IMG/VR virus record: IMGVR_UViG_3300010286_000195
Length of the DNA stretch: 64,000 nucleotides
DNA from: a virus
Direction: 5' to 3' (one strand)
Part shown: in pieces, positions 49,484-54,887 of the stretch
Layout of the letters: the number at the start of each line of letters is the position of its first letter
Numbering within the stretch: position 1 is the stretch's first letter
Made by a program: the position numbers and the translations under genes
The notes under the pieces: model-generated
What the model was told of the DNA's origin: nothing
The model's database searches: none
The model's input: only the letters and a program-made list of their open reading frames with translations

Positions 49484-49563
49484 GAGCGTGTATATACCAC
49501 GAAAGTATAAATAGTTTTTGCAGTTCAAAAAAATTTTATACCTTACAAACAAAACATGTAAGT

Positions 49564-50329: not shown

Positions 50330-50566
50330 GTTATATTGTATTGGAATTACACGTAAAGATGCCAACCAAATCGTGTAATAAGTCCCAAACCATGAGGAAG
50401 TGAGGCACAGCCGAATGTAAGCGATCGTGAGATGCAACGTAGTTTCCAATCAGATTTTGTGTAATCACCTCGTTGAAATTAGTAACATCACGGATGAACG
50501 TGAAGGAGATTTCTTTGAAAGAAATTGCATGGTAAGTCATGTGATCGTTGTTCTCCGTGATGTTCT
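50330..50566 (-). ncRNA. candidate structured RNA (- strand)
   Basis: AAGTATAAATA at 50599-50589; 11-bp inverted repeat 50484-50494/50554-50564 enclosing hairpins. Confidence 0.35.
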
Positions 50567-50762
50567 ATATCTTAAATTGTCGTGTAAATATTTATACTTT
50601 TTGGTTTCACTACTTTCCTTACACTAAATAAAAAAGAAAACAACTTGTAAGGAAGATAGTATGTGTTACGTGTGTTATTGTATGTGTGATTATTTTCTTA
50701 CGTGATACTTCTTACTTCGAGCATCATGTAAGAAACAGCAGCGGAAACCTATGTGATATACC

Positions 50763-50896: not shown

Positions 50897-51644
50897 CTTC
50901 TTTTTTCTAAGCCCACAGAACTTGATTTGAATTTTGAAAACTCGCCGAATATCCCGGAAAACGCCGAACTCGGGGTAACCCAACCCCTTTTTTCTTTCCA
51001 GGATGTCCAGATATGTCAACTATTGTATATCTTTGTTCATCGATGCCCTTTTTTCGTTATCAATATATATATTTGAGCATTGATAACTATGTATGTTCAT
51101 TGATGTTAGTTTGTGGTATTTTTGCTCATATGAGTAATAAACTAGGATAGGTAACATCTCAAAAATGAGATAGGTTTTTAACTTTTTGACTCCTCGCGCG
51201 CGCAATATAAAACTGTCTGATCGTATAATCATATCATAATAGGATAATGCGAGTAATGCGCGATCACAAACAGAGAGTAATTTATCCGTTTTTGATGTTA
51301 AAATCTCGTTGATTTGCGCTTGTTTTTCAGATCTCCTCAAATTAGCCGTATTTGCATGACTATGATATCCTTGTATTGTGCGTATAATCGACGATCTCAT
51401 ATCAAGAAGGGTATAGGTATTATTTGCAAAATTGATGCGCTTAAAACGCTTATATTTCGATGATGCTATCATTGTATATTATATTTGGTTTACAAATACA
51501 TAAAGTATAGGAACCCTTATATGTTAGAAGTATAAGTATATATATAGAATATCATCATGCGAGATAGAAATTTGTTTTTTGGGTTCTGTTTGTTAATTTG
51601 GCGTTGTGTGCGTTGTTTTTCCATTTAACAAATGACATTTCGAT

Positions 51645-51655
51645 AAGTATAAATA
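51645..51655 (+). promoter_or_regulatory. TATA-box promoter AAGTATAAATA
   Basis: Identical 11-mer also at about 49503 (+) and 50599-50589 (-). Confidence 0.6.
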
Positions 51656-51679
51656 CTTAGAAGTATATCTCTATGTAAC

Positions 51680-51927
51680 AAGTGGATGCCTGAAAGCATA
51701 GTCAGGCACGACGTAAGCAGAACCGGAGCGAAAGCCTATCCAGTCTTTTACCTGTATGGTCTCAAACAAGAGGATAAGGTAAGTAGTGCATGTGATACTC
51801 TAATGCGGCATCATGCAGGCGGTATCGCCGGTATACAAATGTTCACTCCATCGCATTAGGCGTCGGATCAAATCCAGTGGAGTGAATTACCTATCAGGTA
51901 AAACTGGTAGGGAGGAAGTGAGTTAAA
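51680..51927 (+). ncRNA. candidate structured RNA / long 5' leader
   Basis: Multiple nested stems downstream of the TATA box; no ORF; ends in the tRNA-like element. Confidence 0.45.
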
Positions 51928-52356
51928 ATGGAGATATACGAAAGAAAACTAACAACTGAAAAGGCACTCGAACAAATGAAAAACCTTTTTGTATCGCTCA
52001 ATGAGCGATTAGAAGAGGATATAAGCAATTTTGATGGCGAGAAGAAGTTTTTCGCTGTTGTAGAACATGACAATGGATTTTTGGTAGGTGATTATAATCG
52101 TCGCGAGTGGAAAACGGACAAAGCAAAAATCGGATATCGAAATGGAGAGTTTTGTTTGATTTGTTACGATTCTGGTTATGTTGAGCATTACCGAGAATAC
52201 TTTAGAATTTTTGCTGATGAGTTTTGGAGGATAAAAAAGATTAACTTTGCTGATATGTTTTCAGCGCTTGTAGAGGCAGTCGAAATATATAACGAGAAGT
52301 CAAAGGAAAAAGACGAACAGATAGAACACTTTTTGGAAATTGCAAAACAATTTTAA
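51928..52356 (+). CDS. hypothetical protein (putative early gene)
   Basis: 142 aa with GGAAGTGAG RBS. Confidence 0.7.
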   Translation: MEIYERKLTTEKALEQMKNLFVSLNERLEEDISNFDGEKKFFAVVEHDNGFLVGDYNRREWKTDKAKIGYRNGEFCLICYDSGYVEHYREYFRIFADEFWRIKKINFADMFSALVEAVEIYNEKSKEKDEQIEHFLEIAKQF

Positions 52357-52431
52357 CCCTTTTTCGCATTTTGGCGTTGGATCAAATCCAGAAAAGGGTT
52401 TCTCCCCATTTGGGGATTAGGAAGTGAGAAA
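52355..52431 (+). ncRNA. second copy of tRNA-like element plus RBS-proximal hairpin
   Basis: Core TCGCATTTTGGCGTTGGATCAAATCCAG closed by a 9-bp stem. Confidence 0.5.
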
Positions 52432-54532: not shown

Positions 54533-54844
54533 ATGAAGTATGTAGAAGCATATATAACAAAGCAGTCAAAGCCTGCCGGAAATCAGAATGACTATTACAC
54601 ATATGATTTACAGACAAAGCGGTTTAAAGATATGAAGGAGTTTAAACAATGGTTAAAAGAGGAATATGGGAAATCACAACGAAAAATAATGTATAGAGAT
54701 GATAAAGAAGGGAATGCGGTTAAAGTAGGTTATGTAATCGGATTTAAGACAAAAGAGTATGAAGATGGAAAATTTAAGACGTATTATGAAAGTCATTGGA
54801 TTGAAGTTGTGGAAGTAGAGACACATAACCCTTTTATCAAGTAA
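54533..54844 (+). CDS. hypothetical protein
   Basis: GGAG RBS; followed by a terminator-like hairpin. Confidence 0.65.
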   Translation: MKYVEAYITKQSKPAGNQNDYYTYDLQTKRFKDMKEFKQWLKEEYGKSQRKIMYRDDKEGNAVKVGYVIGFKTKEYEDGKFKTYYESHWIEVVEVETHNPFIK

Positions 54845-54850
54845 AATTTA

Positions 54851-54887
54851 GGTTAAGTCAACTTATGTTGACTTAACCACTTTTTTT
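54851..54887 (+). terminator. 12-bp hairpin plus T-tract
   Basis: GGTTAAGTCAAC-TTAT-GTTGACTTAACC, then TTTTTTT. Confidence 0.65.

Follow-up and report, generated by a model that had tools for sequence, protein, structure and literature searches.

Which element occupies the 455-nt gap that separates a leftward gene for a 150-aa protein (51020-51472) from the first rightward early gene (51928-52356) of this virus, and what might it do? The window, here the whole stretch of 64,000 nt that was analyzed, covers nearly all of a 64.7-kb IMG/VR record and carries caudovirus genes, tail and terminase genes among them. The large terminase is most similar to that of the archaeal virus ANMV-1 (33% identity, E 2e-74), far ahead of bacterial phages, and one tRNA model match is 139 nt long, which implies an intron of ~66 nt. 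Relatives were found in metagenomes of anaerobic digesters and fermentation. Based on the ANMV-1-like terminase, the implied tRNA intron, and the digester relatives, the virus is treated here as a tailed virus with a methanogen-type archaeon as host. A sequence-only reading of the gap had proposed a promoter-driven, structured, non-coding RNA of ~160 nt that ends at a tRNA-like element. The features identified at the locus are as follows, with double-sided changes counted in A3, an alignment of eight full-length copies.

51600-51647, + strand: conserved upstream promoter region including a purine-rich BRE-like stretch before the TATA box, near-invariant in 14 homologs
51648-51655, + strand: TATA box TATAAATA, kept in all homologs as TATAAATA, TATTTATA or TATATATA
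51675-51680, + strand: predicted transcription start within a conserved TATGTA, ~23 nt past the last TATA base
51687-51708, + strand: P1 hairpin of 7 bp (51687-93 with 51702-08) with a variable 8-nt loop; 100% paired, three double-sided pairs
51709-51721, + strand: conserved 13-nt single strand YGACRUARGCARA, found in 14 of 14 copies including the short forms
51722-51832, + strand: optional closed three-way-junction domain (P0, P2, P3), from covariation and RNAalifold
51722-26 with 51828-32, + strand: P0 closing helix
51735-47 with 51768-79, + strand: P2, four pairs with compensatory changes
51793-99 with 51821-27, + strand: P3a, four pairs with compensatory changes
51804-06 with 51815-17, + strand: P3b, so that P3 has an internal loop and a small terminal hairpin
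51727-34 (8 nt) and 51780-92 (13 nt), + strand: invariant junction strands
51833-51840, + strand: single-stranded tail AUACAAAU, a putative pre-tRNA-like 5′ leader of the t-element, (near-)invariant in the long forms
51841-51887, + strand: t-element, a mimic of the top half of a tRNA with an 11-bp, covarying acceptor-like stem and a GGATCAAATCC T-arm-like hairpin
51890-51930, + strand: 8-bp hairpin (51890-97 with 51904-11), Shine-Dalgarno sequence GGAGGAAGTGAG, and ATG (51928) of the first early gene

The promoter motif named in the sequence-only reading, AAGTATAAATA, is present at 51645-51655, and conservation in all homologs extends ~45 nt upstream of the TATA box. A direct reading of the promoter region found no sigma-70-type spacing. 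Archaeal transcription usually starts ~23 nt after the last TATA base, which would place the start at ~51677 (±3); the start near 51680 proposed earlier is thus plausible as a position taken from TATA spacing alone.

Homologs of the leader were reached through the 142-aa downstream protein, which has ~60 relatives with identities of 65-87%. Of these, 35 were aligned, and the alignment led to 24 metagenome loci, one genome locus, and two IMG/VR loci, and blastn with 51600-51930 located the leader in most of these, often before another first gene. Because the first gene differs among relatives, the RNA is tied to the promoter rather than to a gene. The homologs come from ~14 related anaerobic-digester viruses. 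Nine copies are full-length or nearly so (the window, L008, L015, L026, L007, L014, L013, L005, and L011), three are truncated at the ends of their contigs (L004, L027, and L032), and short forms of four kinds occur in five loci (L003, L010/L012, L024, and L017), with the cut L032 matching L017 where it is preserved. Blastn of 51400-52400 against a phage collection gave no match, nor did IMG/VR scans by single protein and by TLS-core pattern, and the P1-linker pattern was found in three IMG/VR records only. One match to the P2 pattern (L037) was discarded as a chance hit; it sits in a coding region. In three virus records that are at least 90% complete, covariance model R1 identified exactly one leader copy per genome, which opens the early operon and is immediately followed by a t-element, with no second copy found elsewhere in the virus genome. 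One homolog, L027 (JAAYQE010000256.1), lies on a 2.2-kb contig that carries the leader and the 142-aa gene and was binned in a Syntrophomonadaceae bacterial MAG; it is probably a mis-binned archaeal-virus fragment.

The structure was read from MAFFT alignments (A2 and A3) made without fitting to a model. In A3, 95.8% of the pair cells of the five-helix model are paired, compared with 36-47% after the partners have been shifted by 1-3 columns, and 11 pairs show double-sided changes, compared with 0-6 in the shifted versions. In 500 shuffles of A3, the observed value was never reached on four of five measures, while that for further pair types was reached in 62; the sample is one narrow clade of nine full-length copies at 71-81% identity, and phylogenetic inertia inflates these shuffle statistics. 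RNAalifold, run with the t-element included, predicted 57 pairs, of which 18 have double-sided (compensatory) changes, and it independently recovered P0, P2, and P3 on A3. Its energy was not reached in any of 300 column shuffles (z -6.0), and the structure conservation index is 0.65. The folding check suggested earlier therefore gave a divided result: the 162-nt sequence from the window alone does not fold below its dinucleotide shuffles (z -0.96; 38 of 200 equal or better), whereas the homologs show conserved pairing.

The GC content is 0.47 in the RNA and 0.33 in its flanks, in agreement with the sequence-only reading. Two positions are G-U in almost all sequences and would give A-C on the opposite strand. 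As the reverse-strand energy is nearly equal (-26.9 versus -28.4), energy alone is insufficient to orient the RNA, and its assignment to the + strand is based on the G-U positions and the promoter. A search of the window against Rfam 15 returned only two tRNAs elsewhere at the gathering threshold and nothing within 51680-51830 at E up to 10; the leader was likewise unmatched in ten homolog loci at E up to 5. The Infernal comparison with Rfam that had been proposed as a check thus matched no family. K-turn or C/D-box motifs conserved among the homologs were not found by inspection. The invariant junction strands and helix-flanking bases, together with covarying helices and variable tips, are the signature of a functional folded RNA. 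Judged by this pattern of covariation and the lack of an Rfam match, the leader is a conserved folded RNA of a previously uncatalogued family.

The modules of the leader differ in what they conserve. P1 begins ~10 nt past the predicted start and is kept in every form of the leader, with stems that vary as CCUGA/UCAGG, CCAGA/UCUGG, CCCUA/UAGGG, CCUGU/ACAGG, and CCCGU/ACGGG. The 13-nt strand that follows is unique in the window at zero mismatches. In the virus genome, its complement occurs at chance level (13 matches with up to two mismatches, versus 14.6 expected), and a pairing with the inner hairpin of the t-element was rejected because it is broken in L008 and L015. The closing helix P0 is ACCGG/CCGGU, or ACCGCC/GGCGGU in L005/L011. 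P2 occurs as CCUAUCC/GGAUAAGG, GCAUUCC/GGAAAUGC, or GGUAUUC/GAAUGCC and ends in a variable tip (51748-67) of 20 to 48 nt among the copies, and P3a occurs as GAUAC/GUAUC, GUAUC/GAUAC, AUAUC/GAUAU, AAUAC/GUAUU, or GUUAU/AUAAC. The P2 tips of L015, L026, and L007 contain U5-U6 runs, which are absent from the window; these runs could be an internal attenuator for the archaeal polymerase.

Comparison with the homologs supports the outline of the sequence-only reading, in that covariation, an archaeal-type promoter, and the lack of a conserved ORF point to a promoter-driven, structured, non-coding RNA, and the tRNA-like element does abut its 3′ side (51841-51887). The individual stems that had been named fared less well. 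Of the five proposed, only TGCCTGA/TCAGGCA stands; it corresponds to P1, a real helix with at least five covarying variants. Instead of TGGAT/ATCCA, the TCC pairs with GGA at 51772-74 in P2, where C>U is matched by G>A in L005/L011, and the enclosed GC-GAAA-GC tetraloop is lost in L015, L026, and L013. TTACCT/AGGTAA is confined to the window and L008, TGCATG/CATGCA needs a 3-nt insertion unique to the window, and the covariation around GGCG/CGCC fits GATAC/GTATC (P3) instead.

The junction domain is absent from L003, L010/L012, L024, and L017/L032. These short forms consist of the promoter, P1, and the single strand, joined to the t-element, and some retain remnants of the domain (ACCG in L010/L012, CAAAT in L024, and AGCGGTATCGCCGG in L017/L032). 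The four differing deletion boundaries and the remnants indicate that the short forms derive from the long ones and that the domain is dispensable. Read from these boundaries, the junction domain is a module deleted independently at least four times, while P1 and the single strand persist in every form. Such frequent loss could mean that the domain matters little. The first genes after the short forms differ from those after the long forms in this small sample. In one deletion variant (L017:654-800 and L032:1-44), only the 3′ strand of P3/P0 is left, and the usual t-element is replaced by a divergent one with the stem GUGCUAUGU/ACAUAGCAC. An archaeal BHB intron is defined by the hBHBh′ motif, in which the end of the 5′ exon pairs with the 3′ end of the intron in a 4-bp helix flanked by 3-nt bulges. 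This origin of the optional domain was rejected on inspection since no 4-nt stretch of the linker by the 5′ boundary could pair with sequence close to the 3′ boundary, and also since the deletion boundaries of the short forms differ.

The element that follows the leader belongs to a recurrent type. The acceptor stem of the t-element varies as GUUCACUCC, GUGUGCUCC, or AAUCACUCC, and a simple scan of ~25 related loci, which are short, identified ~45 cassettes between early genes in which the acceptor stems covary. Their order is a 7-12 bp acceptor-like stem, a small hairpin, a GGWTCRAWTCC T-arm-like hairpin, a second hairpin, GGAAGTGA, and ATG. Most early cistrons in this virus clade are preceded by such a t-element-hairpin-SD-ATG cassette, and the window contains two (51841-51927 and 52355-52431). 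The intercistronic t-elements open with U5-U6. Leader-adjacent t-elements have CACUCC-type stems and GGAUCAAAUCC, while the intercistronic ones mostly have CCCUUUUU stems and GGUUCAAUCC. The ribosome-binding motif of nearly all early cistrons is GGAAGTGA rather than GGAGGTGA, both in the window (51914-51921 and 52411-52418) and in the related loci, which implies either that the motif does not match the usual 3′ end of 16S rRNA or that the host has an unusual anti-SD sequence. In Haloferax, t-elements flanking an RNA are cut in vivo by RNase P and tRNase Z, and the RNA is released (PMC4326828); in plant mitochondria, t-elements set mRNA ends (PMC1920247). By analogy, release of the leader as a ~165-nt RNA through cleavage at the t-element is plausible.

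Our preferred reading, a tentative one with somewhat less than an even chance, is that the leader is a released RNA whose 5′ module is an indispensable handle, with the junction domain as an accessory that binds protein. Host RNase P would cut the 5′ edge of the t-element (~51841) and tRNase Z its 3′ edge, setting the leader free as a 5′-triphosphate RNA of ~165 nt and leaving the first mRNA with a protective hairpin of its own at the start. Once free, the leader would act very early in infection as an RNA-protein complex. P1 and the single strand would serve as the handle, and the junction domain would be an accessory RNA “gene” that binds protein, for host takeover or as a decoy, as the first unit of an operon with tRNA-like punctuation. 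The leader is unlikely to control translation of the first gene, from which it is separated by the t-element and a self-contained hairpin-SD cassette that also serves internal cistrons.

The main rival, which is possible if on balance unlikely, is a cis-acting leader comparable to put or nut, in which the nascent P1 and single strand, alone or together with the junction domain, bind the polymerase or an elongation factor so that the polymerase reads through the many oligo-U tracts of a long early operon. The put RNA of HK022 binds RNA polymerase and suppresses termination. Like HK022 putL/putR, lambda nut, and rrn boxB-boxA, the leader is a folded RNA directly past an early promoter, tied to that promoter, and at the head of a long operon (PMC9378689). 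P1 sits at about +10, as putL sits just downstream of PL (PMC9378689), and would be the first part to leave the polymerase, while its combination with a conserved linear element recalls boxB and boxA. The single leader copy heads an early operon of ~3.2 kb and nine ORFs with internal T5 runs approximately every 200 nt and a T7 run at its end, and the U5-U6 runs that start the intercistronic t-elements would add to the tracts to be read through. Cleavage at the t-element is compatible with such a function since put works without a tether to the transcript (PMC9378689).

Several observations weigh against this rival. The stem and loop of P1 vary freely, which would be uncommon in an RNA surface contacting a conserved polymerase, the junction domain is dispensable, and T5 runs are common at a genome GC content of ~35% and need not be terminators. 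We know of no RNA-based antitermination for an archaeal polymerase, and this counts against it as well. The leader also differs from put in having no sequence or structure homology to it: put is ~70 nt long with two stems and is present in two copies in HK022, whereas the leader occurs once, combines a hairpin with a linear element and, optionally, a three-way junction, and has a tRNA-like cleavage signal on its 3′ side. A further difference is that the host polymerase is archaeal.

A ligand-sensing riboswitch, with the junction as aptamer and P0 gating either t-element processing or transcription, is improbable. The closed junction with its invariant joining strands, the variable peripheral loops, and the 5′ leader position would suit such a role. 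However, no Rfam riboswitch class was matched, and neither an alternative terminator nor an SD-sequestering helix was found as an expression platform. Moreover, the t-element-hairpin-SD cassette is identical at internal cistrons that lack an aptamer, the downstream gene varies among homologs, and the domain has been lost repeatedly. The suggestion of a riboswitch or ribozyme in the sequence-only reading thus found no support, given the absence of an Rfam match and of a fixed downstream gene.

A DNA-level explanation, that P1 is an operator palindrome, bound by a dimeric regulator which the virus encodes in the divergent gene, with immunity types behind the P1 covariation and the rest serving as spacer, is highly improbable. 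The P1 inverted repeat does lie at about +10 to +32 of a divergent promoter region, and its flanks TACC and GGTA are invariant. However, the distance between these flanks varies (loops of 6-9 nt and stems of 7-9 bp), which is unfit for a rigid dimer site, and the P2/P3 covariation and the G-U pairs 60-140 nt downstream are left unexplained.

The probability of a small protein gene is practically negligible: a 57-aa ATG ORF at 51686-51859 overlies the RNA, contrary to the earlier statement that there is none, and could be translated from a near-leaderless mRNA as it begins 6-10 nt past the predicted start, but its ATG, which arose by an A>G change in the window, is ATA in 12 of 14 homolog copies, neither frame nor start codon was found to be conserved across homologs, L015 and L007 have no ORF of at least 25 aa, and the homolog indels are not multiples of three.

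The released-RNA reading preferred here also has parallels in systems where an acceptor/T-arm mimic delimits a neighboring RNA, namely the t-element upstream of the Haloferax volcanii 5S rRNA, the engineered icrRNA, and the t-elements of plant mitochondria (PMC4326828, PMC1920247). Those t-elements mature rRNA, mRNA, or an artificial crRNA, whereas the virus has them at nearly every early cistron, and its first t-element-delimited unit is a conserved structured non-coding RNA. The end of a non-coding RNA is also made by tRNA-processing enzymes at an adjacent tRNA-like fold in the TMER tRNA-miRNA units of MHV68 and in MALAT1-mascRNA. These systems are eukaryotic, of opposite or different polarity, and have no sequence relation to the leader.

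To our knowledge, almost nothing is known of RNA-level control in archaeal viruses. The locus offers a compact, covariation-supported RNA at the position that a methanogen-type tailed virus would transcribe first, coupled to tRNA-like operon punctuation, and its natural deletion variants already indicate which module is essential. The leader is therefore a candidate new Rfam family and a directly testable system for how archaeal viruses begin their programme. Two more specific proposals can be made, and it is rather unlikely that one or the other is correct: (a) the junction domain is a trans-acting decoy or takeover RNA, or (b) P1 and the single strand reprogram the archaeal RNA polymerase. 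The first would mean that an RNA targeting a host protein is matured by host tRNA-processing enzymes as the first product of infection, and the second would provide the first known RNA element that rides on archaeal RNA polymerase. Either would represent a new regulatory RNA class for archaeal viruses.

Further features were observed in the early region. Exact copies of AAGTATAAATA occur three times, at 49503-49513 (+), 50589-50599 (-), and 51645-51655 (+). The neighboring unit at 50330-50599 (-) has the TATA motif in common with the leader, and its RNA is not homologous. Upstream of the early promoter, 51473-51644 contains a GT-rich block (TTGGGTTCYGTTTGTTRATTTGGCGTTRTGT...) that is conserved in relatives, and a second TATA-like run at 51528-51550 is oriented toward the divergent gene, whose 150-aa product had no match in Pfam and PHROG searches; the region 51473-51644 may be a genetic switch. 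At the other end of the early operon, a T7 run (54881-54887) lies directly 3′ of the last rightward early ORF (54533-54844) and is likely the archaeal terminator of the operon.
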